Counted from the stretch's first letter, positions 2,559-62,741 are shown. The stretch: 64,000 nt of DNA from Proteiniphilum sp. (GCA_028705255.1 JAQWDW010000006.1:5562-69561); one strand, 5' to 3'. Program-made: numbers and translations. Notes: a model not told the origin generated them from the sequence alone.

Positions 2559-2825
2559 TCAGCAAATTGCGTGGTGGGAAATTGTTGTCACCAAAGGTCG
2601 ATACAAAATTAAAAAAGTATTTCATATTTCCAAGCATAAAATCTAGTTTGTAAATGCATCGCGTATATGTTTCTGGTAGCTTGTTTTTCCACACAGGTAA
2701 ACTGACAGATAAATTTACATCCAAGATAATGGATAAAAATAATCCTTGCAAATATATTGGTGAAAACTCTATTTTTTAGTCGACAAATCTACTAAAAAAA
2801 CGCCTGACTAGCACGCGTTCTTAAC

Positions 2826-2860
2826 AAACCGCGGGACTCCTGTTCAGTGTCCGGCGGTTT
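2826..2860. terminator. Stem-loop downstream of clpX, possible terminator or attenuator
   Basis: AAACCGC/GCGGTTT outer arms and GGAC/GTCC inner arms. The U-tract is weak on the minus strand. Confidence 0.35.
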
Positions 2861-2883
2861 TATTCTTTTTTGTGGGGCTGAAG

Positions 2884-4125
2884 TCAGGCTACACGCAAGT
2901 GGTGCAGATCGGAATTTTCGAGTTGATGGATGGCATATTCGCGTGTCACATGCAACTTTTTCTTTTCCTCTGAAGGCAGCGTGAACATGGCATCAATCAT
3001 GATGGCTTCCACAATGGAGCGTAGTCCGCGTGCGCCCAGCTTAAACTCAATGGCTTTGTCCACAATATATTCATAGGCACCCTGATCGAAGGTGAGGGCC
3101 ACCCCATCCATTTCAAACAGCTTCTGATATTGCTTGACGATGGAGTTCTTGGGCTCGACCAGAATACGTAACAAAGCGTCTCTATCCAGCGGCTCCAGGT
3201 AGGTGAGGATGGGAAGCCTTCCAATGATCTCCGGAATCAGACCGAACGATTTTAAATCGAGCGGCGTGATATATTTCAACATGTTGTGCCGGTCGATGTT
3301 CGCTTTGTCGCTACTGGCGGCATAACCCACCACACGTGTGTTGAGACGTTGGGCAATTTTCTTCTCAATGCCGTCGAAGGCACCTCCGCAGATAAACAGA
3401 ATGTTCTTGGTGTTAATTGCAATCATGCGCTGTTCCGGATGCTTGCGACCACCCTGGGGCGGTACATTCACCACAGAACCCTCGAGCAGCTTCAACAGTC
3501 CCTGCTGTACACCTTCACCACTCACATCACGGGTGATGGAAGGGTTGTCACTTTTACGGGCTATTTTGTCGATTTCGTCGATGAACACAATACCTCTCTC
3601 GGCAGCATTGACATCGTAGTCGGCCACCTGCAGCAGTCGGGTGAGGATGCTTTCGATGTCCTCGCCCACATATCCCGCCTCGGTTAGTACTGTGGCATCC
3701 ACGATGGTGAAGGGGACATGCAACATCTTAGCAATGGTGCGTGCCAGCAAGGTCTTGCCTGTGCCGGTGGCACCTACCATGATGATGTTTGATTTCTCGA
3801 TCTCCACCTCATCTTTCAGATTTTTCTGTAGAATACGTTTGTAATGGTTGTAGACCGAAACCGACAGAAACCGCTTTGCACTATCCTGCCTGATCACGTA
3901 CTGATCCAGGAATTCCTTGATCTGTGCCGGCTTGGGCAGAGATAAGAGGGAGATACCCGGATCGGCTTTTGCATTACTCTTAAAGGTATCGTTCACGATC
4001 TCGTGAGCCTGCTCGGCGCACATATCGCAGATGTACCCTGTCATGCCTGATATGAGCAGGTTTACTTCCTGTTCGCTTCTTCCGCAAAAACTGCAATGAT
4101 TGCTGCTGTTCGCTTTTTTAGCCAT
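2884..4125 (-). CDS. clpX: ATP-dependent Clp protease ATP-binding subunit ClpX
   Basis: N-terminal CSFC...CDMC zinc finger, Walker [26 protein letters not shown]. Confidence 0.98.
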
Positions 4126-4830: not shown

Positions 4831-4985
4831 ACGTTTTTTTTTTGTCGAATTAATAACTGCAAAAAAAGTGCCACTATTTTTCGATGCTGTTTCTGCAGAA
4901 TGGATCCGACAAACAAAAATATAAGGAATTGTTGAATTATAAAATAAAACCTTGAAAAACAGTTGATTTTTTCAGTAATGTTTTG

Positions 4986-6437
4986 TTATTCTGCCGACGA
5001 TTCGCTCTCAAGAGCTGATTCCTCTTTGTTGTCACCTTCTTCTGCGTGATGGTCTGTATTTTCTCCATGCTCGTGGGCATGTTCGCTCATGAGTTCGCTG
5101 AACTCTTTTGAGGAGATCTCTTTCTCAGTCACAGCCAGGTTATCTTTCAGCCAGTCGATGATTTTCTCCTCAGTCGCTCTGTCGTATAGATTCTGAATGG
5201 TTTCCTCCTTCTCCAGCAGGCTTTTTGTATAATTCTGTAACACATCAGCCGGCAGGTTGGTCATTCCGTATTGTGCAAATTGTGCTTTGGCAACTTCCGC
5301 AGCCAGTGCTTCGATATCCTGATACTCCACTTTGATTCCGCCTTCTTCTACAATCTTCTGCTTGGCGATATGGAACTTGAGATCCTCTAAGATTGCCGGA
5401 TAATCGGCTTCAATCTCCTCGACAGTTTTCTTGTCGTTCGATTCGAGCAGCCAGCGTTTCAGAAATGCATCGGGGAATTGTACATCTTTCATCTTCTCCA
5501 CGATGATATCTTTTGCTGTATGGATGAACAGGTGGTCGGCATTGGGTTTAAACTGATTGCCGAGTTCCGAAGCAATCTTGGTGCGGAACTCTTCTTCGGT
5601 GGTAACAACCCCTTGACCCAGCACCCGGTCGAAAAGCTCCTGGTTCAGTTCAGCTTCCTGGTAACGGGTTACCTCTTTGATGTCGAAACGGAAATCGGCA
5701 TTGATATCTTTTACATGATCTTTGGTAGTCTGTAGCAACGAGGCCACCTCGGCTTCGTTGTTATCATAGGCACTCTTCGGGTTGAAAACGATGCTGTCTC
5801 CTACCTTGGCGCCGATAAACTGATTTTTTACGGTCTCTTCCTTCAGGTAGGAAGGCATCAGGATGGCATTTTCGATCAGCTGACCGTTTTCTTTCTCCTT
5901 CTCCCCATCCATTTCGGTGAGCGTCCCCTTAATCAGGTCGGTATCTTTCGCCTCTTCCTCGATGGAAGCATAGGTGCCGTAATTCTGCTTATAGGCATCC
6001 AACTGTTTCTCCAGAAGATCATCCTCCAGCTTCACCCGATAATAGGTCATTTCGGTGTCTTTATCGAGCGGCAACGCAAACTCCGGTGTGAGAGCCACGT
6101 CGAAATAAAATGTAAGGATTTCATCCTTGTCGAGGTCTACCCGCATCTCTTCGCTGTCATCGGAGATGGGTTCGCCCAGGATTTTTAATTTGTTTTCCCG
6201 GATGAAGTTGGTCAGCTCTTCCGTGACTAGCTTGTTCACCTCATCTACCAGAACCGCTTTGCCATACATGCGTTGGATTACACTCTTGGGTACTTTACCC
6301 TGACGGAATCCGGGAATGTTGGCTTTCTGCCGGAATTGATTCAGTGACTTATCTACCTTTTCCTGATAATCTGCTTTCTCCAGTTCTATGACAATGGTTC
6401 CGTTTACATCGTCCTTTTTATTCAGTGTTGACTTCAT
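4986..6437 (-). CDS. tig: Trigger factor with a His/acidic C-terminal extension
   Basis: Ribosome-binding loop IPGFRQGKVP and position in the tig-clpP-clpX order. Confidence 0.93.
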   Translation of the reverse strand: MKSTLNKKDDVNGTIVIELEKADYQEKVDKSLNQFRQKANIPGFRQGKVPKSVIQRMYGKAVLVDEVNKLVTEELTNFIRENKLKILGEPISDDSEEMRVDLDKDEILTFYFDVALTPEFALPLDKDTEMTYYRVKLEDDLLEKQLDAYKQNYGTYASIEEEAKDTDLIKGTLTEMDGEKEKENGQLIENAILMPSYLKEETVKNQFIGAKVGDSIVFNPKSAYDNNEAEVASLLQTTKDHVKDINADFRFDIKEVTRYQEAELNQELFDRVLGQGVVTTEEEFRTKIASELGNQFKPNADHLFIHTAKDIIVEKMKDVQFPDAFLKRWLLESNDKKTVEEIEADYPAILEDLKFHIAKQKIVEEGGIKVEYQDIEALAAEVAKAQFAQYGMTNLPADVLQNYTKSLLEKEETIQNLYDRATEEKIIDWLKDNLAVTEKEISSKEFSELMSEHAHEHGENTDHHAEEGDNKEESALESESSAE

Positions 6438-6508
6438 TGAAATGCGTGATGTTTTAGTGTAAAGTCGGTTAATTTCAACCGATTGAATCCTTTTTTTTAA
6501 TAAGAGTG

Positions 6509-6539
6509 CAAAATTAGTGTTATTCTTTCAATTTGCAAA
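6509..6539 (-). promoter_or_regulatory. Bacteroidetes primary-sigma promoter of tig-clpP-clpX
   Basis: Minus strand TTTG (6539-6536), 19 nt spacer, TAATTTTG (6516-6509); matches the -33/-7 consensus. Confidence 0.75.
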
Positions 6540-6647
6540 AAATATTTTCCTGTTTGAAGAATGCTTTGGAACCTGAAGCAGCGATGAGATCAGGAAATGA
6601 TTTTTTTTAAAGTGAAAACCCTATCTTTGCAGTTCAAAACAGAATAA

Positions 6648-7556
6648 ATGCAACCAATTTTCAGATCTGCCACGCCGGGCTCCAAGATAGCCACCCTTTT
6701 TATATTGCTTTTTACCGGACTCATTGTGTCCTTGTTGATTATGGGATTAATGAATATGGTATTTGGAATGGATGATGCCAGCAACGCCACATCTATTTAT
6801 ACAGGCTCCGTGTTGCAGTCGCTTTTTGCCATTGCACTACCAGCATACCTGACAGTTGCTCTTACCACTGACAGTTCCACGCGATACTTAAAATTAGGTT
6901 GGGATGAGAAGATGGGGTGGAAGGTTATTTTCGCCGTGTTGTTGTTTGTGTTTTCCTATCCGTTTGTATCTTTTCTGACGCAATGGAACAGCGGCATGCA
7001 ACTGCCCGAATGGATGAGTAGTTTGGAAGAGGTGATGCGGTCAATGGAGGATGCTGCCATGGAGACCACAAAGTTGTTGCTGTCGGGTCGTACTCCAGCC
7101 ATGTTGATCCTCAACCTGATTGTTGTGGCTGGTCTGGCAGCCTTCTCGGAGGAGTTGTTTTTTCGGGGAGCACTGCAGCAGTTTCTGTGTGAGAGATTTC
7201 GGAATGGCCATGTTGCTGTATGGCTTTCGGCACTGCTATTTAGTTTGGTCCACTTCCAGTTTTATGGTTTTTTGCCGAGAATGATGTTAGGTGTGCTGCT
7301 GGGTTATCTGTTTCTTTACACACGAAACCTGTGGGTAGCTGTCATCTTTCACTTCGTGAACAATGCCACGGTGATTCTGCTTTACTTTTTCTGGAGCGAC
7401 AAGGAGTGGTTTAGTCGGATGGAGGAGCTACCGGTAACTATTCCCTTTCTGGTGGTTGCCACAGTGAGTGTGCTGCTTACACTGCTTCTGTTTTGGATCT
7501 ATCTGAAAAGAGACCGACAATCGGTCGATGGAGCAGAAACAATCAACTTATATTGA
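6648..7556 (+). CDS. CPBP (CAAX/Abi) family intramembrane metalloprotease
   Basis: Multiple TM segments, EELFFRG, FSLVHF and HFVNN motifs. Confidence 0.9.
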   Translation: MQPIFRSATPGSKIATLFILLFTGLIVSLLIMGLMNMVFGMDDASNATSIYTGSVLQSLFAIALPAYLTVALTTDSSTRYLKLGWDEKMGWKVIFAVLLFVFSYPFVSFLTQWNSGMQLPEWMSSLEEVMRSMEDAAMETTKLLLSGRTPAMLILNLIVVAGLAAFSEELFFRGALQQFLCERFRNGHVAVWLSALLFSLVHFQFYGFLPRMMLGVLLGYLFLYTRNLWVAVIFHFVNNATVILLYFFWSDKEWFSRMEELPVTIPFLVVATVSVLLTLLLFWIYLKRDRQSVDGAETINLY

Positions 7557-7557
7557 T

Positions 7558-8133
7558 ATGATACAGATACAAGATACCCTCATCTCGGACGATTTGTTCG
7601 AAGTACATTTTGTTTGTGACCTATGCAAATGCAAAGGTCAGTGTTGTGTGGATGGAGAGTCAGGGGCGCCGATCACCCGCGAAGAGTTTACAGAAATCAA
7701 TGAGATACTGCCTGCTATATGGGAAGACCTCACGCCCAAAGCACAGGAGCTGATCAAACAGCAGGGAATTGCTTATACCGACAGCGATGGGGAACTGGTT
7801 ACCTCCATCATCCAGGGTGAAGAGTGTGTCTTTGCCAGCTTCGATGCCAACGGAGTTTGCAAGTGCACAATCGACAGTGCTTTCCGAGAAGGACGCATTG
7901 CCGTTCAGAAACCTGTTTCGTGTCATCTTTACCCGGTGAGGTTGCATAATTATGCTGATTTTACGGCGGTGAACTATCATCGCTGGTCGGTCTGCCAGCC
8001 CGCCCGTAAACTGGGACGAAAAGAGGGCGTACCTCTATACCAGTTCTTGCGGGAACCACTGATCAGAAGATTCGGTGAATCGTGGTACCGGGAGGTATGT
8101 GAGGCGGCAACATTGCTCAGTGAAAAAAAGTAA
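7558..8133 (+). CDS. DUF3109 family Cys-rich protein
   Basis: FVCDLCKCKGQCCVDGESGAP and KPVSCHLYP. The start is set at MIQIQ (7558), just after the upstream stop. Confidence 0.8.
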   Translation: MIQIQDTLISDDLFEVHFVCDLCKCKGQCCVDGESGAPITREEFTEINEILPAIWEDLTPKAQELIKQQGIAYTDSDGELVTSIIQGEECVFASFDANGVCKCTIDSAFREGRIAVQKPVSCHLYPVRLHNYADFTAVNYHRWSVCQPARKLGRKEGVPLYQFLREPLIRRFGESWYREVCEAATLLSEKK

Positions 8134-53067: not shown

Positions 53068-53790
53068 TCAGCTTTTCAGTAAAGCGTTTTCAATGGTTTC
53101 TTTTGAGAGTTTTTTCGTGCAGAAGAACCAATCATAACAATGCATTTCTTCCTCTCTGGTTTCCATTCGTTCTTTAGCTACACCGCAGGAACCGGCTGTA
53201 GGTACGATCACTTCATCTCCCGGACGCCAGTCGGCAGGCAAGGCGACTCCAAATTCATCGGCTGTCTGTAAACCGATAAGGATACGCTTCAGTTCGTCAA
53301 AATTACGGCCAAGTGATAACGGGTAGTAGATAATTGTGCGAATAATACCCCTGGGATCCACGAAAAAAACAGCTCGGACAGCCTGTGTGGAGTTCTCGTT
53401 GGGTTGAATCATCCCATACTTTTTGGCAACTTCCATCGAGATATCCTCAATCAATGGAAAGGTAACTTCTACCTCTTTCATCCCCTTATATTCAATTTTT
53501 TCTTTAATGGTACGCAACCAGGCTATATGGCTGTACAACCCATCCACAGATAATCCAACCAACTGGCAGTTCAGATTTTCAAAATCTTTTTGCATCGAAG
53601 CAAATGTCATGAACTCAGATGTGCATACCGGTGTAAAATCGGCAGGATGACTAAATAGTATCTTCCATTTTCCGGGAAAGTCATCCGGGAAATGAATAAC
53701 GCCCTGCGTTGTTTTTGCTGTAAAAATAGGAGCTTTGTCGCCGATTCGAGGCATAGGAGTAGTGTTTTCTTGATTTGTTTCCATTTTCAT
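53068..53790 (-). CDS. Peroxiredoxin, Prx6-type with extra C-terminal Cys
   Basis: SHPADFTPVCTSE (peroxidatic Cys), GRNFDE, PADW.PG, GSC, CYDWFFC. Confidence 0.92.
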   Translation of the reverse strand: MKMETNQENTTPMPRIGDKAPIFTAKTTQGVIHFPDDFPGKWKILFSHPADFTPVCTSEFMTFASMQKDFENLNCQLVGLSVDGLYSHIAWLRTIKEKIEYKGMKEVEVTFPLIEDISMEVAKKYGMIQPNENSTQAVRAVFFVDPRGIIRTIIYYPLSLGRNFDELKRILIGLQTADEFGVALPADWRPGDEVIVPTAGSCGVAKERMETREEEMHCYDWFFCTKKLSKETIENALLKS

Positions 53791-53909
53791 TTCATTTTAA
53801 ATTAATTACTATATGTTATAAGTGAACAAGTTATAGGTATAGATATACAATAATAAACTGAAGATTCTTGTCAGATGTATAACACGACATTTCCAAATGC
53901 AAATGATAA

Positions 53910-54142
53910 TTATTTTTCGCATGGCCTGGACCAGGCCGAAATACCACCCTCCAGCACTTTCACATTGGTGAACCCGTTTGCCTGTAGGTAATCAGATAGG
54001 GAATCTCAATACAATCGCCAACGGCATAGATATCGGGATCGGATGTCTGCTAGATGGTTATCTCTGCATTCTCATCCATGCGACGTGCTTTAGAAGCTGC
54101 TTTTGGCCATGCAGCAGAACCGCCTATAACAACAACTTTCAT
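53910..54142 (-). pseudogene. Collapsed CoA-disulfide-reductase/rhodanese fusion gene (three fragments)
   Basis: MKVVVIGGSAAWPKAASKARRMDENAEITI* (54142-54050), then QTSDPDIYAVGDCIEIPYLIT (54049-53987), then in another frame LQANGFTNVKVLEGGISAWSRPCEK* (53987-53910). Its ATG overlaps the DUF134 stop (ATGA). Confidence 0.85.
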
Positions 54143-54555
54143 TTTTCTTCCCCATTAATCGGTATTAACTCGTTATTGCCAAAACTTGTACAATTCTTAC
54201 AACGTACATGGTTCTCGATACCTCCTATCAATTTGTAACAACGCCTGCAACGAAACCATTCTTTGTCAAACTGCACATTACCACCCTCTATATTGATCAT
54301 CTTTCCTTCCACAAATGCCTGAGCAATAGTTTTACGGGCTTGTTCATAGATACGCGTCAGAGTGGGTCGGGAAACGTTCATCCGTTCAGCTGCCTGATCC
54401 TGGTTCAAACCTTCATAATCCAATAAACGGATTGCCTCATATTCATCATACAGCAATGAAACAGCACTCAACCTGTTCCGTGGAATGCCAAAGGGTTTAA
54501 ATCCCTGCATCAGGGGAGGATTCGATATTTTTCGGTTTTGTTTGGGACGAGGCAT
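54139..54555 (-). CDS. DUF134 family HTH regulator with a C-terminal CxxC-x12-CxxC
   Basis: MPRPK..R.I...P....FKP.G, DEYEAIRL.D.EGL.Q..AA.RM.VSRPTL.RI...AR..IA.A.VEGK; CRRC and CKNC. Confidence 0.9.
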   Translation of the reverse strand: MPRPKQNRKISNPPLMQGFKPFGIPRNRLSAVSLLYDEYEAIRLLDYEGLNQDQAAERMNVSRPTLTRIYEQARKTIAQAFVEGKMINIEGGNVQFDKEWFRCRRCYKLIGGIENHVRCKNCTSFGNNELIPINGEEK

Positions 54556-54607
54556 GATTTCAATTATCTATTTTTGTTACTTTGAAATCCAAAGATATAA
54601 AATAATT

Positions 54608-54623
54608 TTAAACTTATGTTCGT
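54608..54623. promoter_or_regulatory. Palindromic operator copy B (DUF134 promoter)
   Basis: TTAAACTTATGTTCGT matches ATGAACATATGTTCAT at 12/16. It lies 11-26 nt upstream of the minus-strand -7 box TATCTTTG (54597-54590). Confidence 0.5.
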
Positions 54624-54753
54624 AAATAAAATTATTTTTGATCCTAATTTTCCTCGGTTCTGTTTTTTTAATTTTCTCATTTTCTGATGTAAGAAAATTT
54701 CATATTACATTTTTTAGGCTACAAAAAAAATCGCAAAAAAATATACAAATTTA

Positions 54754-54785
54754 TTTGCATATCGAACATATGTTCATTACATTTG
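54754..54785 (+). promoter_or_regulatory. Promoter of the ORP-like operon with operator copy A in its spacer
   Basis: TTTG (54754-57), 20 nt spacer, TACATTTG (54778-85). The spacer holds TCGAACATATGTTCAT (54762-77; 14/16), including the perfect palindrome GAACATATGTTC. Confidence 0.75.
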
Positions 54786-54848
54786 CCGCATATTTAAAGC
54801 AAGGTACTTCTATAAGCTATCATAAAACCAAATAGAAAATATCATCCT

Positions 54849-55172
54849 ATGAAAGTAGCCATCACATCATCCGGCAAGGAACTGACATCTCTACCGGACA
54901 AGCGTTTCGGACGCTGCAACTGTTTTGTCATCTACGACACCGAGAACGACTCGGTGGAGGTTGTGGATAATCCCGGCAGGGATCTAAACGAGGGTGCGGG
55001 ACCTGCCGCTGCACAGCTGATCGCATCGAAAGGAGCCGAGATGATCATCACAGGACATTTGGGAGGAAAAGCAGCATCAATAGTGCAACAGCTCGGGATG
55101 CAGATGACTCCCCTGGATGAACAACACAGAAGTGTGGAAGAAGTAATTCAATTAATCAAACAAAACAATTAA
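54849..55172 (+). CDS. NifB/NifX (Di-Nase FeMo-co domain) protein, Orange-protein-like
   Basis: MKVAI.S.G, DKRFGRC..FVIYD, GAG..AAQ, IITG.LG.KA. Confidence 0.85.
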   Translation: MKVAITSSGKELTSLPDKRFGRCNCFVIYDTENDSVEVVDNPGRDLNEGAGPAAAQLIASKGAEMIITGHLGGKAASIVQQLGMQMTPLDEQHRSVEEVIQLIKQNN

Positions 55173-55188
55173 ACAAAAGGAGGGTATT

Positions 55189-55464
55189 ATGCCAGGAATG
55201 AACAGAAAAGGCCCCGATGGAATGGGCGCTATGAGTGGGAGAGGACGTGGTCGTTGTAACCCGTCGAACAGAGAGGCTAATAGCTTTGATGCTTCTGAAG
55301 GAGCCGGGATGAATGCTCCTTTGCAACAGGGTGCCGGAATAGGCATGGGCCAGGGACAAGGCAGAGGCATGGGACAAGGCCAAGGCCAGGGCAGAGGCAT
55401 GGGTCAGGGCCAGGCCCAGGGAATGAGAAGAAGAGACGGATCTGGTAGAAGACGAATAGGATGA
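55189..55464 (+). CDS. DUF5320-like small Gly-rich protein
   Basis: MPG..R.GP.G.G.MSGRG.G.C N-terminus followed by Gly/Met/Gln/Arg low-complexity repeats. Confidence 0.7.
   Translation: MPGMNRKGPDGMGAMSGRGRGRCNPSNREANSFDASEGAGMNAPLQQGAGIGMGQGQGRGMGQGQGQGRGMGQGQAQGMRRRDGSGRRRIG
55342..55425 (+). repeat. Imperfect coding tandem repeat (GMGQGQG[QG]R x3)
   Basis: GGCATGGGC.., GGCATGGGA.. and GGCATGGGT.. units with synonymous divergence. Confidence 0.8.
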
Positions 55465-55799
55465 AGCAGGTTATCGCAATACCGCTGGAAGAGGGGAGAC
55501 TCTGTCAGCATTTTGGCCATTGTCAACAGTTTGCCATCATCGAAACGGAAGATGGAGCCATACAGAACGAGACGTTACTAACACCCCCCCCACATGAACC
55601 GGGGCTGTTGCCGGCATGGCTCGCCGAGAGAGGCATCACCGAGGTGATTGCGGCCGGTATCGGGCAGAAAGCGATTCGTCTGTTTGAACAACATAATATC
55701 AAGGTGCACGTGGGTGCCGAGTATAAGAGTCCGCGGGAGCTGGTTATCGATCATTTTAAACAGTCACTGGTCACCGGTCTCAATGCCTGTGACCACTAG
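55461..55799 (+). CDS. NifB/NifX (Di-Nase) protein, HFGHC/PPPHEPG/CDH type
   Basis: AIP..EGRLCQHFGHC, PPPHEPG.LP.W, IAAGIG.KA, terminal CDH. ATGA overlap with the previous gene. Confidence 0.85.
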   Translation: MKQVIAIPLEEGRLCQHFGHCQQFAIIETEDGAIQNETLLTPPPHEPGLLPAWLAERGITEVIAAGIGQKAIRLFEQHNIKVHVGAEYKSPRELVIDHFKQSLVTGLNACDH

Positions 55800-55812
55800 A
55801 AGAGTTGATTCT

Positions 55813-56682
55813 GTGGAAGCAGATTACCGATGTTATTTTTGCTTTGCCCGTACCATTGAGCGACTGATAGAGAAGCATACGCTCACATCTGCCGAGAAAA
55901 AAGCGCTTGCAGCTGAGATGTTCTCCCATTTTCACAATGGGGCTTCCGGTTTTTCCATTCCCGTTCTCTCAAGAGAAGTCTTTCGTATCTTCAGAGAGAG
56001 GAGTGGGGTAGCCGATCCTTACGAAAAGATTAAATATGAGAGCAACGAGCGTCTGCTCGGTGAGTATGCGATGTTTCGGGAGATGATTGACCAATCGGAT
56101 GATCCCTTCGAGGTAGCATTGCGTCTGGCAGTGGCCGGGAACATCATCGATTATGGGGTGAGCGACCACCATGATTTGGAAGAGACAATGGAAAATGTGC
56201 TGAAAAGCACTTTCGCGATTAATCATGTGGGGCGGCTCAAACGGCGGCTGGCTGAAGCCAGAACAGTCCTTTACCTAGGCGATAATGCCGGAGAGATTGT
56301 ATTTGACAAACTGTTCATCGAAACCTTTCATCATCCCAACATATGGTATGCTGTGCGAGGGACACCGGTGATTAACGATGCCACACGGAAAGATGCAGAC
56401 CAAGTGGGGATGGAAGAGGTGGCAAAGGTCATTGACAACGGTTATGATGCCCCCTCTACCCTGCCGGAGAAGTGTTCTCCCTCCTTTCAGCAGCTTTACA
56501 ATGAAGCGGATCTGGTGATTTCAAAAGGTCAGGGTAATCTGGAGGGATTGATTGATGCCTCCAGGCGTAACATCTTCTTTCTGCTAATGGTGAAGTGCAA
56601 TGTGATAGCCGACAGGCTGGGAGTGAAAAAGGGTGGTTTCGTATGTACTGAGAACAAACCAAAAAAAGAAAAAGCAGGATGA
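55813..56682 (+). CDS. DUF89/ARMT1-like damage-control metal phosphatase
   Basis: CxxC near the N-terminus, AGNIID, DNAGEIVFD, INDAT, SKGQGN.E.L, KC. The start is taken at GTG 55813; the track extension overlaps the upstream gene. Confidence 0.88.
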   Translation: MEADYRCYFCFARTIERLIEKHTLTSAEKKALAAEMFSHFHNGASGFSIPVLSREVFRIFRERSGVADPYEKIKYESNERLLGEYAMFREMIDQSDDPFEVALRLAVAGNIIDYGVSDHHDLEETMENVLKSTFAINHVGRLKRRLAEARTVLYLGDNAGEIVFDKLFIETFHHPNIWYAVRGTPVINDATRKDADQVGMEEVAKVIDNGYDAPSTLPEKCSPSFQQLYNEADLVISKGQGNLEGLIDASRRNIFFLLMVKCNVIADRLGVKKGGFVCTENKPKKEKAG

Positions 56683-57536
56683 AGATTGCAATAGCCAGTG
56701 GTAAGGGAGGTACTGGCAAGACCTTTGTCTCGACCAATCTCTTCTGGGTCGCTTCACAGAAGGGCTTCGATTGTGTGCTGGCCGACTGTGATGCAGAGGA
56801 ACCCAATGTGGCGGAATTTCTTGTCGGTGAGGAGGTACAGGTTGAAGAGGTCTATCAGCAGGTGCCGGTGATCGACCCGGAGAGATGTGCCTTCTGCGGG
56901 AAATGTTACGACTACTGCAGCTACAATGCCATCCTTTACCTGCCTGAGAAAAAGATGATTCAGGTGCTGCCCGATCTCTGTCACGACTGTGGTGCCTGCA
57001 GCTATGTTTGTCAAGCGGGAGCGATCACCGAGCATCCCAAGATGCTGGGCAAGGTGAAGCGTGCTGCATACGGAATCGGTCAGCAGATTGTTGAAGGTCG
57101 TGCCGAGGTGGGAGTCTACACACCCGCTCCGGTCATTACCCGTGCTATTCGTGAGGCTGGTGACAGAGAACTGGTGCTCCTCGACTCTCCCCCCGGCATC
57201 TCATGTCCCTTTATCGCGACGGTCGACAGGGCCGACTATGTGGTGCTGGTCAGTGAACCCACCCCCTTTGGGCTGCACGACCTGCAGCTATCTGCAGCCA
57301 CGGTTCGGAAGTTGGGTAAGCCGTTTGGTGTGGTGGTCAATAGAGCCGGACTGGGAGACAATGAAATATACCGGTGGCTTGAACAGGAGACGATCCCTCT
57401 CTTGTTGGAGATTCCTTTCGACCGGAAGGTGGCACGTATCTATGCCGAGGGAGGACTGCCTGCTGCAGTGGATAACGCCTACCGGGAGATGTTCAGCCGT
57501 CTGCTCGCACAAATCGTTCAACAAAACATCTCATGA
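56679..57536 (+). CDS. MinD/ParA-like P-loop ATPase with a 2x[4Fe-4S] insert (ATPase 1)
   Basis: SGKGGTGKT, DCDAEEPN, CAFCGKC...C and CHDCGAC...C, DSPPG.SCP, EPTPFGLHD. Confidence 0.9.
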   Translation: MKIAIASGKGGTGKTFVSTNLFWVASQKGFDCVLADCDAEEPNVAEFLVGEEVQVEEVYQQVPVIDPERCAFCGKCYDYCSYNAILYLPEKKMIQVLPDLCHDCGACSYVCQAGAITEHPKMLGKVKRAAYGIGQQIVEGRAEVGVYTPAPVITRAIREAGDRELVLLDSPPGISCPFIATVDRADYVVLVSEPTPFGLHDLQLSAATVRKLGKPFGVVVNRAGLGDNEIYRWLEQETIPLLLEIPFDRKVARIYAEGGLPAAVDNAYREMFSRLLAQIVQQNIS

Positions 57537-58399
57537 GACAAATTGTCATTATAAGCGGAAAAGGAGGAACAGGCAAGACAAGCCTGAGTGCAGCACTGGC
57601 AACCATGGGTGAACGGCTGATGGTAGCCGACTGCGATGTGGATGCAGCCAACCTGCATCTGTTGCTGGAGCCGACCGATCATTCCCGGCACCCTTTTCCC
57701 ACCGGAGCCAAGGCATTAATCGACCAGCAGCGATGTACACAATGCGGTGCCTGCATGGATCTTTGTCGCTTCGATGCGATCCGGTACCAAGAAGATCATT
57801 ACACCATCTCTGAAACATCATGTGACGGATGTTATCTCTGCATGCGCATCTGTCCGGCTGACGCCATCAGCATGATTGAGAGCAATGGCAGCTACTGGAA
57901 AACCGGCACCTTCCGCAACGGCTGGATGGTACATGCCCAGCTGGAGCCCGGCGAGGAGAACTCCGGCAAACTGGTCAACGTAGTACGTAAGCAATCCCTT
58001 CAGCTGTCGGAGCAGATGGGAGTGGAGACCATCCTGATTGATGGCCCTCCCGGCACCGGCTGCCCCGCAATTTCTGCTATGAGCGGTGCCAACCTGGCAG
58101 TGCTGGTCACCGAGCCAAGTCGCTCCGGTTTCCATGATCTGAAGAGGATAAAGCAGCTTGCCGATGGGTTTGACATTCCCTCCGTTGTGGTGATCAACAA
58201 GTATGACCTGAACGAGCAGGTGACGACCGAGATCGAGTCGTGGTGCCGCAGCGAGCGTCTCTCACTAATCGGCAAGATCCCATTTGAACCGGCTGTGGTG
58301 GAGGCGATGCTGCAATGCCAGTCGGTGGTCGAGTGGGCACCCCGGTCTGCTGCAGCCGATGAAATTACGGCCATCCATCGGCAGATTTTTCAATCGTAG
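57533..58399 (+). CDS. MinD/ParA-like P-loop ATPase with a 2x[4Fe-4S] insert (ATPase 2)
   Basis: SGKGGTGKT, DCDVDAANLHL, CTQCGAC...C and CDGCYLC...C, GEENSGKLV, DGPPGTGCP. Confidence 0.9.
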   Translation: MRQIVIISGKGGTGKTSLSAALATMGERLMVADCDVDAANLHLLLEPTDHSRHPFPTGAKALIDQQRCTQCGACMDLCRFDAIRYQEDHYTISETSCDGCYLCMRICPADAISMIESNGSYWKTGTFRNGWMVHAQLEPGEENSGKLVNVVRKQSLQLSEQMGVETILIDGPPGTGCPAISAMSGANLAVLVTEPSRSGFHDLKRIKQLADGFDIPSVVVINKYDLNEQVTTEIESWCRSERLSLIGKIPFEPAVVEAMLQCQSVVEWAPRSAAADEITAIHRQIFQS

Positions 58400-58427
58400 T
58401 GACGGAACCATTTAAAGAGAAGAAGCG

Positions 58428-59363
58428 ATGATATGTTTCGGACCTGTACCCTCCCGGAGACTGGGACATAGCCTTGGTATCAACAATATACCAGGTGACA
58501 AGATCTGTACCTATGCCTGTATATACTGTCAGGTGGGGGCTACCCGTCATTACACCCTCGAGAGACAGTCGTTTTACACCCCGGAGCAGATCTTCTCTGC
58601 GGTGGAGGAGCACCTGGGCAAGTTACAGGCGATGCCAGACTATCTCACTTTCGTGCCGAACGGCGAACCTACACTTGATATACACCTGAAAGAGTCGATC
58701 CTCCTGTTGAAGCAGATCGGCCTTCCAATCGCTGTGATCACCAATGCTTCGCTGCTGAGTGATCAGCAGGTGCGTGATGCCCTATCGCTTGCCGATTGGG
58801 TATCGGTGAAGGTGGATGCAAGTGATGATGCTGTATGGAAGAGAATCAACAGACCCCATCCCAGGCTCACCTTTGAAGGTTATAAAGAGGGCCTCCAGGC
58901 TTTTGCCTCCTCCTATAAAGGTGTTCTGACTGCCGAGACCCTAATGGTGGAGGGTGTCAATGATTGGGCAAACCTGATGCAACAGAACGCTTCACTGATC
59001 GTGACCCTCAAACCGGCTACGGCCTATCTCTCCATTCCCACACGCCCCCCTGCGATGCGGAGTGTGAAGACACCGGATGAAGCAGCCATTAACAGGGCCT
59101 ATCAGATCTACACCGATGCCGGATTGTACAGTGAAATGCTGCTTGGCTTTGAAGGAAGCGATACCGGTTTCACCGGCGATGCCAGGGCTGATATCCTCAA
59201 TATGAGTGCCGTGCATCCCATACGAGAGGAGACCATGGGCGAGATACTGCGTAAGAACAGGGCAGAAAGCAGCCTGCCCGATCAGCTGATCAGAGAGAAA
59301 GAAATCCGTGAGGTTGTTTATCAGGATAAAAAGTTTTGGATTCGCAATTTTACAAGAAGATGA
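58428..59363 (+). CDS. Radical SAM protein of unknown function
   Basis: FGPVPSRRLG.SLG, CTYACIYC (CxxxCxxC), NGEPTL, ITNASLL, GVND. Confidence 0.9.
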   Translation: MICFGPVPSRRLGHSLGINNIPGDKICTYACIYCQVGATRHYTLERQSFYTPEQIFSAVEEHLGKLQAMPDYLTFVPNGEPTLDIHLKESILLLKQIGLPIAVITNASLLSDQQVRDALSLADWVSVKVDASDDAVWKRINRPHPRLTFEGYKEGLQAFASSYKGVLTAETLMVEGVNDWANLMQQNASLIVTLKPATAYLSIPTRPPAMRSVKTPDEAAINRAYQIYTDAGLYSEMLLGFEGSDTGFTGDARADILNMSAVHPIREETMGEILRKNRAESSLPDQLIREKEIREVVYQDKKFWIRNFTRR

Positions 59364-59442
59364 TTGTACCGATTGTGATATATGGTGCTTCTGCAAAAAC
59401 AATTGATACAGGGTAAATTAAATAAAAAAAAAAGAAGAGAAG

Positions 59443-60282
59443 ATGAACGAACAATGCAATGCAACCAAAAAACCGTTCGAGAAGACGAGATTGAACAACA
59501 TAAAAAATATACTCATCGTTGCCTCGGGCAAGGGAGGTGTTGGCAAGTCGACTGTGGCTGCCGCCCTGGCACTCTCGCTGGCAAGGGAGGGGTATACAAC
59601 CGGCCTGCTGGATGCCGATATCCATGGCCCTTCGGTGCCCACCCTCTTCCACCTGAACAACCAACGGCCGCTATCGATGGAGAAAGAGGGGAAGACCTGG
59701 ATTGAACCCTTTGACCGGTATGGCATCAAGGTGATCTCGATCGGTTTCTTCATCGATCCCTCCCAGTCACTTCTATGGCGCGGTCCCATGGTGTCGAATG
59801 CGCTCAAACAACTGCTCAATGATACCAACTGGGGAGAACTGGATTATCTGGTGATTGACACCCCGCCCGGCACAGGGGATGTACATCTGACCCTGCTGCA
59901 ATCGTACGAGATCACCGGTGCCGTGGTGGTAACCACGCCGCAGACCATCGCGCTGGATGATGTGATCAAAGCGATCGGGATGTTTAACAATAAGAATGTA
60001 TCGGTCCCCGTGCTGGGCATCGTGGAGAACATGGCCTGGTTCACTCCCTCGCTGCATCCCGATGAGAAATATTTCCTCTTTGGGCAGGGGGGTGGTGAGA
60101 AACTGTCGCAGCAGTTTCATCTGCCCCTGATCGCACAGATCCCCATGAATGAGCAGATCCGCCAAAGTTGTGACGAGGGCTCGCTCGATACCCTCTTTCA
60201 GGATGAGCAGATCGCACAATCATTCTCCGGCTTGGTAGATACTATTTTGGCCAATCAGAAAAAAGAAAGCACACATAAATAG
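59443..60282 (+). CDS. Mrp/NBP35 (ApbC-like) P-loop ATPase lacking the CxxC motif
   Basis: SGKGGVGKST, DADIHGPS, WRGPM, DTPPGTGD, VTTPQ, GIVENM. Confidence 0.92.
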   Translation: MNEQCNATKKPFEKTRLNNIKNILIVASGKGGVGKSTVAAALALSLAREGYTTGLLDADIHGPSVPTLFHLNNQRPLSMEKEGKTWIEPFDRYGIKVISIGFFIDPSQSLLWRGPMVSNALKQLLNDTNWGELDYLVIDTPPGTGDVHLTLLQSYEITGAVVVTTPQTIALDDVIKAIGMFNNKNVSVPVLGIVENMAWFTPSLHPDEKYFLFGQGGGEKLSQQFHLPLIAQIPMNEQIRQSCDEGSLDTLFQDEQIAQSFSGLVDTILANQKKESTHK

Positions 60283-60291
60283 AACAGCAGT

Positions 60292-60702
60292 ATGATCGAG
60301 CACGACTACATTTTCCGGGTCTTGTATCCCGATACTGACCAGATGGGAACCATGCACCATGCCAATTACGCAAAATACTACGAGGCAGCCCGTTGGGAAT
60401 TGTTCCGGAGCATCGGTATTTCTTACAAGTCGATCGAAGATGCCGGATACATGCTTCCTGTTACCAGGATGGATTTTCGTTTCCTTAAAACCACCCGGTA
60501 TGATGCTCTGCTAACTGCAAGAACAACCTTGACAGCCGTTAAAGGAGTCCGGCTCTGGTTCAGCTATAAACTATATAATGAAAAGCAGGAACTGATCAAT
60601 GAAGCAGAAACGGAACTGGCCTTCATAAAAAAGGAAAATTGGAAACCGTGCCGTACACCCGATTTCGTTTTAAAAGCCATTCACGCTAACCAGAAAACAT
60701 AA
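60292..60702 (+). CDS. Acyl-CoA thioesterase (YbgC/4HBT hot-dog fold)
   Basis: Y.DTDQMG..HHANY..YYE.AR. Confidence 0.88.
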   Translation: MIEHDYIFRVLYPDTDQMGTMHHANYAKYYEAARWELFRSIGISYKSIEDAGYMLPVTRMDFRFLKTTRYDALLTARTTLTAVKGVRLWFSYKLYNEKQELINEAETELAFIKKENWKPCRTPDFVLKAIHANQKT

Positions 60703-60749
60703 ATCGCCCATATTATTATATCGCATATAAAACTATTGAATTGTCCATT

Positions 60750-60900
60750 CTTCTTTTCCTCAACCCCAGGAAATCCCGATCCAAGCCGCTGCTTCAAGCC
60801 CCCGCCCATTAAAACATAAAAGTTTTTGAAAGCGGTATGATGGGCCAGCCTTATAAACGGGAAAAATATAAAACGAGGCTGGTGGAATCCTGTCCGTCAA
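60750..60900 (-). pseudogene. Possible eroded rhodanese-domain gene
   Basis: The minus strand reads ..DGQDSTSLVLYFSR, then after a frameshift IRLAH..AFKNFYVLMGGGLKQRLGSGFPGVEEK. This resembles the rhodanese LYC..G.RS...GF.NVY.L.GG...W...G.P pattern if TGT>TTT (C>F) and TGG>CGG (W>R) are assumed. Confidence 0.4.
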
Positions 60901-60936
60901 TCAGAATTTTAAGCAACAACTGAAAAATTAGCCAAG

Positions 60937-61683
60937 ATGAAACAAAAGTGGTGTAATAAATCAAACCTGAACCTGAGCATTGACATCATCATGTTATTAC
61001 TGCTCACGCCTTTGGCGGGAATCGGCTTCCTAATAAAATATGTCCTGATCCCCGGTATTCAACGGAACGAACACTACGGGGCTGGTGTTGAACTGGAATT
61101 TTGGGGACTAACACGTCACCAATGGGGATCCATTCACCTGATCATCAGCATCGTTTACCTCGTTCTTTTACTTCTTCACATTATTCTGCATTGGAAAATG
61201 GTTGTTGGATTTTTCAAACGGATGATTCCTAATGAAGCCTTACGTGCAATATCGGCCACACTGATTGCCAGTGCAAGTCTTCTCATGTTTGTCTTTCCTC
61301 TTTTTGTAAAACCGGAGATTGTTACAAGGGAATCGTTACATCTGAACAGAAAAATCAAACAGGAAACTCATCAAACCGTACCGAACGGAGAAATCCGTAA
61401 AAAAGTGTCAAAAGAAACAGAAAAGGATATAGTGGTTTCTCCCCGGGCGGGTCTGAATAAACCGGAACAGACCCTATCCGAAACTGTATTTGTTGACCCA
61501 GAGATCAACGGAAGGCAAACCCTGCAGTTTGTTGCCAACAAATACGACATACCAGTGGAAAAGCTTGCAACTGATCTGAACATCCCTTTAGACCGGGCCG
61601 GTGAAAAAATCGGAAGGCTACGGAAATTGTATGTCTTTACCATGAACGACGTGCGCAAAAGCATTATGAAAAATAAAGAATAG
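60937..61683 (+). CDS. DUF4405 membrane protein
   Basis: TM helices, TR..W..IHL..S..YL.LL.LHI.LHW His pattern, soluble C-terminal domain. Confidence 0.78.
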   Translation: MKQKWCNKSNLNLSIDIIMLLLLTPLAGIGFLIKYVLIPGIQRNEHYGAGVELEFWGLTRHQWGSIHLIISIVYLVLLLLHIILHWKMVVGFFKRMIPNEALRAISATLIASASLLMFVFPLFVKPEIVTRESLHLNRKIKQETHQTVPNGEIRKKVSKETEKDIVVSPRAGLNKPEQTLSETVFVDPEINGRQTLQFVANKYDIPVEKLATDLNIPLDRAGEKIGRLRKLYVFTMNDVRKSIMKNKE

Positions 61684-61781
61684 ACCACCTGTTGGCATAA
61701 CGTTGAATGTTAAAGTGAAACAATAGAAAAGTAAATGATGATTAGTAACCAAAATTGAAAGAAGCTGTGTTCATATATGCC

Positions 61782-62561
61782 TTAAAAGGTGTATGAGTCA
61801 CCTGTTTTTACCGATTGAATCGGAAAGTTCTCAGAAAATGCCACCAGCGCAGGTAATGCGGTACAGTGCGAGGGAATGACATGAGACACCCTGTTTTTTT
61901 TCAGGTAATTGATGGTCTCAATGGTTTGCCGGTCCCGGTTTTTCAGATGAAAACCGCCCATGATACCGTAAATCCTCTGCTCGCCGGTAATGTTTCTTGC
62001 CTGTTCCAGGGTGTTCACCACCCCGGCATGACCACAACCGGTGATCACAAACAATCCTTTCTCTGTCTGTAAAGCGACTGCACTGTCGTCCACTACAAAA
62101 TCGGCTGTTCCGTTCTCGAACGAGAAGGCGGTTTGTTTCGATTCAAAATCAGTGATGCGGGGTATCTCACCCAGAAAGAGCACAGAGTTACTGATAGCGT
62201 AAGGTGCTTTGCTGGTGATGAGGTCAAACTGCTCTGCTGTTTCTTTCCGGCTCATCCTCAGACCAATGTAGGTGTGATCGGTATTTCTATATCGCTTCAC
62301 AAAACAGTCTGGATGGCAGAGCAGCTTGCCTCCTGTGAGATGTGCCAGTCCATTTCCATGATCATAGTGACCGTGACTCAGGATAATCAGTTCCCTCTCC
62401 TCCGGATCAATACCCATGATGAAAGCATTTTGCAAGAAGAGATCACTCTGTCCCGTATCGAACAGGAACTTTATCCCTTCATGCTCTATAAAATAGGAGA
62501 GGCCGTGCTCTGCACCGACGGAGCCACCGGAATAATTATCGGTGAGAATTGAAACTTTCAT
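61782..62561 (-). CDS. MBL-fold metallo-hydrolase (COG1237-type)
   Basis: AEHGLS, FDTGQS, LSHGHYDHGNG, DDSA, GCGHAG, GGFHL, HCT. Confidence 0.9.
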   Translation of the reverse strand: MKVSILTDNYSGGSVGAEHGLSYFIEHEGIKFLFDTGQSDLFLQNAFIMGIDPEERELIILSHGHYDHGNGLAHLTGGKLLCHPDCFVKRYRNTDHTYIGLRMSRKETAEQFDLITSKAPYAISNSVLFLGEIPRITDFESKQTAFSFENGTADFVVDDSAVALQTEKGLFVITGCGHAGVVNTLEQARNITGEQRIYGIMGGFHLKNRDRQTIETINYLKKNRVSHVIPSHCTALPALVAFSENFPIQSVKTGDSYTF

Positions 62562-62597
62562 CTCTTTTTTTGCAAATATAACTATATAAATTTTATT

Positions 62598-62613
62598 ATG
62601 AACAAATGCTCAT
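62598..62613. promoter_or_regulatory. Palindromic operator copy C (MBL hydrolase promoter)
   Basis: ATGAACAAATGCTCAT (14/16). It overlaps the minus-strand TTTG (62606-03), 22 nt upstream of TATATTTG (62580-73). Confidence 0.65.
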
Positions 62614-62741
62614 TTAAATTTACTTTAATATAGCACTAGTGTTATATTAGTAACCTCTGCACTCAGGACCTCAACAGATCGGGGCTCAGGGCAATGCCCG
62701 GGCCCACGCTTGCAGAAGCTTCGTGTCAATTAGAATCAACC

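Follow-up and report, generated by a model that had tools for sequence, protein, structure and literature searches.

Two described regulatory systems are among those closest to the locus considered here. In Desulfovibrio vulgaris Hildenborough the orp operons are under the control of OrpR, sigma-54 and IHF (PMC8359166; PMC3897727; PMC6345978), and Orp3 and Orp4 are members of the orange-protein (ORP) complex (PMC6345978). In Bacillus subtilis, DeoR reads the half-site TTGAACA, with residues R34 and R39 contacting bases (PMC11229326). The subject of this study is a stretch of 64,000 nucleotides from Proteiniphilum sp. (GCA_028705255.1, JAQWDW010000006.1:5562-69561), referred to below as the window, in which a palindrome lies at three promoters of a block of ORP-like genes that also encodes a small helix-turn-helix (HTH) protein of the DUF134 family. 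A preliminary description of this DNA proposed that the DUF134 protein uses the palindrome as its operator, that this protein regulates its own gene, and that the palindrome draws a metallo-beta-lactamase-fold (MBL) hydrolase gene some 8 kb away into the same pathway. The comparative analysis set out here points, with a probability that we would place at about three in four, to an autoregulated DUF134 repressor-operator system that is predicted to control three promoters in the window, and the three palindromes very probably belong, as predicted sites, to the neighbouring DUF134 protein. No functional study of DUF134, UPF0251, PF02001, COG1342 or DUF5320 was found in the full-text literature; nor was a published operator for DUF134, in agreement with the earlier remark that no defined one was known, and the pairing of this family with an operator box appears to be unpublished.

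Three palindromes in the promoters of one gene block

Promoters of the Bacteroidota carry TTTG at -33 and TAnnTTTG at -7, and the three copies of the palindrome, designated A, B and C, are arranged around elements of this type (Table 1). Copy A, which reads TCGAACATATGTTCAT in the window, matches the palindrome at 14 of 16 positions and contains a perfect 12-bp palindrome, GAACATATGTTC; it stands 5' of the NifX-like first gene of the ORP-like operon, occupies 16 of the 20 nt of the promoter spacer and directly touches the -7 box. Copy B, TTAAACTTATGTTCGT, is a weaker predicted operator (12/16), with the minus-strand -7 box of the DUF134 gene beginning 10 nt downstream of its end. A better version of this copy, ATGAACATAAGTTTAT, is present at the equivalent place in two relatives (L007 and L010; L, G and C numbers are our designations for loci, genomes and contigs). 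Copy C, ATGAACAAATGCTCAT (14/16), is followed after 17 nt by the minus-strand -7 box of the MBL gene and includes the TTTG element of that promoter. The placements made in the preliminary description, with A exactly in the -33/-7 spacer, B in the DUF134 promoter and C over the -33 element of the hydrolase gene, were confirmed in both coordinates and degree of match.

Counted within the window, such matches are weak evidence, with 2 found at three or fewer mismatches against 0.52 expected and a count of 2 reached in 10 of 100 shuffles. Since statistics confined to the window were too weak to decide the matter, a 20-nt weight matrix was built from 51 sites 5' of DUF134 genes, taken from other genomes only, and was scanned over the whole 2.97-Mb assembly, with expectations derived from the exact score distribution. 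Among 2.97 million positions the three that rank highest are copies A, C and B, in that order, and chance would supply 0.0035, 0.13 and 0.86 sites per genome at or above their respective scores of 26.8, 21.0 and 17.3 bits. All three are intergenic and in promoter regions, within one 8-kb block; the genome-wide scan with background statistics suggested at the outset returns precisely the sites from which the proposal was drawn. The fourth-best site in the genome, at 16.0 bits (C3:10589), is intragenic and was treated as chance, as was a high-scoring site in the DUF134-negative genome G019, which falls within a 347-aa open reading frame (ORF) that we take, from its N-terminus alone, to be MltG-like.

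Association of the palindrome with DUF134 across genomes

DUF134 is present in 19 of the genomes of 41 relatives, and in these the palindrome stands directly against the -7 box of nearly every DUF134 gene of the MxRPKxxRK...PP type; 10 of 16 other families of the order show the same arrangement. When one genome was scanned for each species, 80 further DUF134 loci emerged, almost all from the Bacteroidota. Within 250 nt 5' of DUF134, the pattern ATGAAC-N4-GTTCAT with at most one mismatch occurs in 47 of these 80 loci, as compared with 3 of 283 control windows drawn from the same loci (Fisher p = 1e-33), and in 68 of the 80 the ±3 kb around the gene contain a site that scores 17 bits or more. 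An unbiased count of dyads of the form 5-N(0-10)-5 gave first place to TGAAC-N4-GTTCA, which was present upstream of the gene in 35 of 79 cases, against 6 for the runner-up among unrelated dyads. In a reverse test, metagenome contigs were scanned for WWATGAACATATGTTCATWW without protein information; 80 contigs were returned, 39 of which encode DUF134, with the gene no more than 300 nt from the box in 38, and about 11 of the other 41 carry the box before DUF5320, NifX-like or ARMT1-like genes. The motif is far rarer in the control windows than upstream of DUF134 and is conserved with that gene. Read from gene to box and from box to gene, these sequence comparisons support a DUF134-linked operator together with autoregulation, the predicted operator lying inside the core promoter of DUF134 itself and being kept there across genomes.

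Several apparent exceptions are loci in which the site precedes the gene of a small Cys-rich membrane protein that lies 5' of DUF134. In several metagenome-assembled genomes (MAGs) of the Bacteroidales (L060-L064 and L068, at about 2731-3000) the box is found 5' of a gene for an 81-87-aa membrane protein just upstream of DUF134; this protein has the motif CTTCLFG...FYCG..C and no match to a Pfam family.

The DUF134 protein

The DUF134 protein of the window is the only copy in the genome and, as had been noted earlier, the sole regulator-like protein of the block as judged by Pfam; it has no match to HTH_5, and it scores 67.6 against NCBIfam NF003257, under the equivalog cut-off of 115. In an AlphaFold (AF2) model (pLDDT 73.8) a basic arm at the N-terminus is followed by an HTH of three helices (residues 36-83) and then by a tail that is rich in beta structure and contains four cysteines. 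It carries the motifs of the family, namely a PP..G[FY]KP.G arm, an SRPT..R recognition helix and a C-terminal CxxC...CxxC, and across 73 DUF134 sequences P13, P14, G18, P21, G23, S62, R63, T65, R68 and the four cysteines are invariant or nearly so, with R63 and R68 invariant in all. The CxxC-x12-CxxC tail to which the preliminary description drew attention is formed by C103, C106, C119 and C122, each kept in at least 90% of the 73 homologues, and it may act as a sensor of metal, Fe-S or redox state.

The best match by sequence to the HTH in the PDB is the DNA-binding domain of DeoR (7bhy_A; hmmsearch E = 2e-4), and DeoR is likewise the top Foldseek match (rmsd 0.6 Å, 38% identity over 39 columns). 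In the sequence alignment the arginines of DeoR ISRPTVSR, which we take to be R34 and R39, pair with R63 and R68 of DUF134 VSRPTLTR. From this match and the aligned invariant arginines, the DUF134 HTH belongs to a type for which reading of the present half-site is established. The protein is without the C-terminal sugar-phosphate effector domain of the SorC family (about 250 aa), its HTH being followed by beta strands and the Cys4 ribbon, and it is therefore not a member of that family.

Long forms of DUF134, of about 160-215 aa (L011, L024, L076-L080, L087-L108), have an extra C-terminal Cys-rich segment, CICPxCG...PC....CPxC, with L011 and L024 being the forms aligned, and their loci often carry a pair of boxes that bracket the -7 box. 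In two families of the order (L017, L018) a variant box, ATGAGAATATTCTCAT, lies 5' of DUF134 at -38 and -62, and the recognition helix is SRPTFAR as against SRPTLTR. Helices of the ..FAR type, compared with ..LTR, tend to go with GAGN half-sites (L015, L017, L018, L024); a co-variation of helix and box was set aside, the numbers being too small and copy C providing a counter-example.

Site position and the likely mode of regulation

The position of the box relative to the promoter is far from random. Of 98 strong sites in related loci, 73 keep a set spacing to a TAnnTTTG box, as do 5 of 98 positions taken at random, and the distances fall into classes of 0 nt (n = 29), 8-11 nt (n = 34) and 17 nt (n = 5), each of which is represented by one of the copies A, B and C. 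In L011, L024 and other loci two boxes flank the -7 box and the transcription start. A protein bound at such positions would exclude RNA polymerase, and repression by promoter occlusion, with autoregulation, is therefore the likeliest mode; the autoregulation suggested at the outset is predicted from the box in the promoter of DUF134 itself, here and across genomes.

In the mechanism that we propose, the operator is a palindrome of 16-20 bp, wwATGAAC-aTAt-GTTCATww, which would be the target of the DUF134 protein encoded beside it, a dimer reading both TGAAC half-sites through its DeoR-like HTH. Bound in the spacer at copy A or in the -33 region at copies B and C, the protein would keep RNA polymerase off the DUF134 gene, the nine- or ten-gene ORP-like operon and the MBL hydrolase gene, and a signal perceived at the conserved Cys4 tail, be it zinc, an Fe-S cluster or thiol redox state, would release it. 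What the analysis shows are the sites, where they stand in the promoters, that they are unique across the genome and conserved with DUF134, and that the HTH is similar to that of DeoR; direct binding, the number of subunits bound, the direction of the regulatory effect and the kind of signal are elements that we infer.

Competing explanations

The low count within the window and the 12/16 match of copy B would suit three chance products of AT-rich promoter sequence, a reading to which we allow next to no probability: the sites hold ranks 1-3 in the genome under a matrix trained elsewhere, they are kept at orthologous promoters, and the DUF134-locus counts, the dyad count, the genome scan and the box-first contig test contradict it. 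Nor do we find it credible that the boxes serve a LexA-type repressor as SOS boxes. The Cheo box of LexA/DinR in the Firmicutes has the consensus CGAACATATGTTCG (GAAC-N4-GTTC), and CGAACATATGTTCA, contained in copy A, matches it at 13 of 14 positions, but no recognizable DNA-repair gene is found among more than 100 box-adjacent genes, and the box goes with DUF134 genes. Control by sigma-54 and a regulator of the OrpR type was also considered; the sigma-54 promoter TGGCAC-N5-TTGC has no match in either of the two intergenic regions concerned (54556-54848 and 62562-62741), and such control is therefore not applicable here. The sole zero-mismatch match to the sigma-54 consensus in the window, TGGCACTTTTTTTGCA, is at 4858-4873 on the minus strand.

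A metal-sensing repressor of the ArsR/SmtB family, encoded at C73:486-854 or on C96, might bind the boxes, with DUF134 being merely one of the regulated genes. The 12-2-12 operators of this family share the core TGAACA-N2-TGTTCA (PMC8790569), about 10 of the 80 contigs from the reverse test (among the 41 other than those encoding DUF134) have the box just 5' of HTH_5 (ArsR) genes, and the genome encodes two ArsR-like proteins (C73 and C96), the C73 gene having ATGAATATATGTTCAT 45 nt upstream. We nonetheless regard an ArsR-type owner of the boxes as quite unlikely, given that no ArsR gene is among the box neighbours in the 80 DUF134 loci, where DUF134 is adjacent in most, that one half-site of the C73 site is GAAT and its score no more than 11.6 bits, that the DUF134-linked targets are Fe-S and redox genes and not metal exporters (an ArsP_2 permease being the exception), and that the DUF134 HTH is similar to a domain for which recognition of TTGAACA is established; some cross-binding by ArsR-type proteins is nevertheless conceivable. 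The ATGAATATATGTTCAT site itself (L150:443-458) precedes the ArsR-family gene and then genes for DUF6132, thioredoxin and DUF302; it is probably the operator of that ArsR and, as part of the ArsR-thioredoxin-DUF302 operon, was rejected as a site of the DUF134 regulon; similar sites of the GAAT type are present in G011, G017, G029 and G033. An alternative that leaves DUF134 in place is that it binds the boxes but that its mode of action is not the same at every promoter, or that it depends on a second protein; at copies B and C, which overlap the -33 region, it might be an activator, or it might have a co-repressor such as one of the small DUF5320 or Cys-rich proteins. Copies B and C are centred near -30 and -37, as far as these positions can be inferred, where activators can also act, clear DUF5320 genes are the most frequent box targets elsewhere after DUF134 itself, and the long DUF134 forms have an extra Cys-rich domain. 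This too appears unlikely, however, in view of the commonest class of sites, to which copy A belongs and which lies between -33 and -7, a position typical of repressors, and of the double sites in L011, L024 and others, which lie on either side of the -7 box and the start of transcription.

Several further observations, like the ArsR findings above, weigh against DUF134 as the protein that reads these boxes. No strong site accompanies 12 of the 80 DUF134 loci, and the number of ATGAAC-N4-GTTCAT patterns per genome at one mismatch or fewer, a count dominated by noise, differs only weakly, at 11.1 in DUF134-positive and 8.9 in DUF134-negative genomes (p = 0.049). The complete genome G017, from the same genus, keeps boxes at its ORP-like operon, DUF5320 gene and MBL gene, with neither an adjacent DUF134 gene nor a DUF134 remnant at the operon; the sole DUF134 of this genome is a remote paralogue with the helix SRPTFTRL and without a box of its own, and its boxes are read either by that paralogue or by another factor.

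The gene block and the extent of the regulon

The block that is predicted to be under DUF134 control combines an Mrp/NBP35 ATPase with a Nitro_FeMo-Co protein and a pair of MinD-type ATPases that carry ferredoxin inserts, and it is ORP-like in the meaning that the term has for the orp genes of Desulfovibrio (PMC6345978). Here separate genes encode the Mrp and the Nitro_FeMo-Co portions of MrpORP. Both MinD/ParA-type ferredoxin ATPases are, on our assumption, the equivalents of Orp3 and Orp4. Within the genus the NifX-like first gene is confined to DUF134-positive genomes (7 of 25). The DUF4405 gene is of uncertain membership in the operon because the 234-nt gap 5' of it contains neither a box nor a strict -7 box.

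Table 1. Positions of genes, promoter elements and predicted operators in the Proteiniphilum window
Feature	Position	Strand	Remarks
DUF134 regulator, 138 aa	54139-54555	-	PF02001, 84.1 bits (cut-off 27), residues 3-95
DUF134 promoter, -7 box TAtcTTTG	54590-54597	-	
Copy B, predicted operator	54608-54623		over -33 region of DUF134 promoter; 17.3 bits
ORP-like operon promoter	54754-54785	+	TTTG (54754-54757), 20-nt spacer, TAcaTTTG (54778-54785)
Copy A, predicted operator	54762-54777		20-nt site 54760-54779; -33/-7 spacer of ORP-like operon promoter; 26.8 bits
NifX/ORP-like protein (Nitro_FeMo-Co domain), first operon gene	54849-55172	+	
DUF5320-like Gly/Arg-rich small protein	55189-55464	+	24.1 bits, below cut-off of 27
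Second Nitro_FeMo-Co protein	55461-55799	+	like C-terminal domain of MrpORP; 118 bits to NF041136 positions 265-364
ARMT1-like/DUF89 damage-control phosphatase family protein	55783-56682	+	start chosen at ATG 55783
Two MinD/ParA-type ATPases with 2x[4Fe-4S] ferredoxin inserts	56679-57536 and 57533-58399	+	
Radical SAM protein	58428-59363	+	
Mrp/NBP35 (NUBPL-type) Fe-S carrier ATPase	59443-60282	+	296.6 bits
4HBT thioesterase	60292-60702	+	
DUF4405 membrane protein	60937-61683	+	operon membership uncertain
MBL hydrolase	61782-62561	-	third promoter with box
MBL promoter, -7 box TAtaTTTG	62573-62580	-	
Copy C, predicted operator	62598-62613		over -33 region of MBL promoter; 21.0 bits

Across genomes the box is carried by genes for DUF134, NifX/ORP-like, DUF5320 and ARMT1-like proteins (the last in L085, L092, L099, L117 and L177), and it is also found before genes for the ArsP_2 permease, thioesterase and MBL hydrolase and, in L097 and L103, before that of a CoA-disulfide-reductase-like oxidoreductase with a rhodanese domain. 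A strong box precedes the gene of a 1-Cys peroxiredoxin in L043 and L074, but the peroxiredoxin gene that adjoins DUF134 in the window (53068-53790, minus strand) has none (matrix score below 6), and membership of the regulon therefore varies between lineages. In the 348-nt gap between DUF134 and this peroxiredoxin gene, at 53900-54145 on the minus strand, there are short in-frame remnants of an oxidoreductase with a rhodanese domain (among them MKVVVIGGSAAWPKAASKARRMDENAEITI*, DPDIYAVGDC and a VLEGGISAW tail), which constitute a heavily deleted pseudogene; in L097 and L103 the homologues of this pseudogene are intact (562 aa) and have the DUF134 box.

The suggestion that the palindrome recruits the MBL gene into the pathway holds in part. 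The box is real here, in G017 (L035), where it lies 36 nt upstream, and in a distant MAG (L090), where it lies 38 nt upstream, whereas 20 of the 21 MBL homologues elsewhere in the order that have a placeable start are without an upstream box of at least 10 bits, the exception (L124) having a 16.3-bit box 135 nt upstream. Because most homologues lack the box, the MBL gene was ruled out as a core member of the regulon and is regarded as a real but lineage-specific recruit. The ORP-like operon of G017 (L035:5689-12986) has three boxes and, between its first and second genes, extra ORFs at about 6237-7934 that may have been inserted; it apparently lacks the genes for the ARMT1-like, radical SAM, Mrp and thioesterase proteins.

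Significance and comparison with known systems

DUF134/UPF0251 is a small family that is widespread in anaerobic bacteria and archaea, and a control search with it also matched Methanocaldococcus and Methanosarcina. A defined box, its position in the promoter and a small conserved regulon make DUF134 a directly testable repressor and provide a first handle on the control of ORP-like iron-sulfur gene clusters outside Desulfovibrio, and in the window the box joins the MBL hydrolase and an operon of nine or ten genes in one control unit. A more ambitious and clearly tentative suggestion, which we think may well prove wrong, is that DUF134 is a Cys4-based sensor-repressor of Fe-S or thiol-redox state, the counterpart in the Bacteroidota and other anaerobes of sigma-54/OrpR in Desulfovibrio, holding ORP-type Fe-S genes off until cluster damage or oxidation occurs, and in some lineages also those of peroxiredoxin, CoA-disulfide reductase, DUF5320 and the MBL hydrolase. 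If true, the suggestion would reveal what regulates the ORP module, which is poorly understood, and what triggers it physiologically.

Set beside known systems, the DUF134 box is instructive as much in its differences as in its likenesses. With the LexA/DinR Cheo box it shares the GAAC-N4-GTTC dyad, but the protein family and the regulon are others, and the targets seen include no SOS genes. The ArsR/SmtB repressors have nearly the same core, are autoregulated and have operators that overlap promoters (PMC8790569), whereas their winged-helix fold (HTH_5) is unrelated and their targets are genes of metal efflux or sequestration. DeoR, which belongs to the SorC family and acts at the dra-nupC-pdp operator (PDB 7BHY, 8R7Y), provides the best match in its DNA-binding part, a small HTH resembling sigma-70 region 4 with an SRPT..R motif, and in its TTGAACA half-sites within a palindrome that overlaps the promoter; it differs in being a tetramer of 313-residue chains that has an effector domain for sugar phosphates and acts at a composite operator of 39 bp, whereas DUF134, at 138 aa, has an N-terminal basic arm, a Cys4 ribbon and a single palindrome of 16-20 bp. 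In gene content a parallel is offered by OrpR of Desulfovibrio, which is encoded beside targets that include the same set of ORP-type Nitro_FeMo-Co proteins, MinD-ferredoxin ATPases and Mrp/NBP35, and which senses redox state through an Fe-S cluster, an analogy that suggests the kind of signal to which DUF134 might respond. OrpR, however, activates sigma-54 promoters as an enhancer-binding protein; no gene resembling such a protein is present among the ORFs of the block, and the promoters here are of the housekeeping type, with the palindromes at the positions of a repressor.

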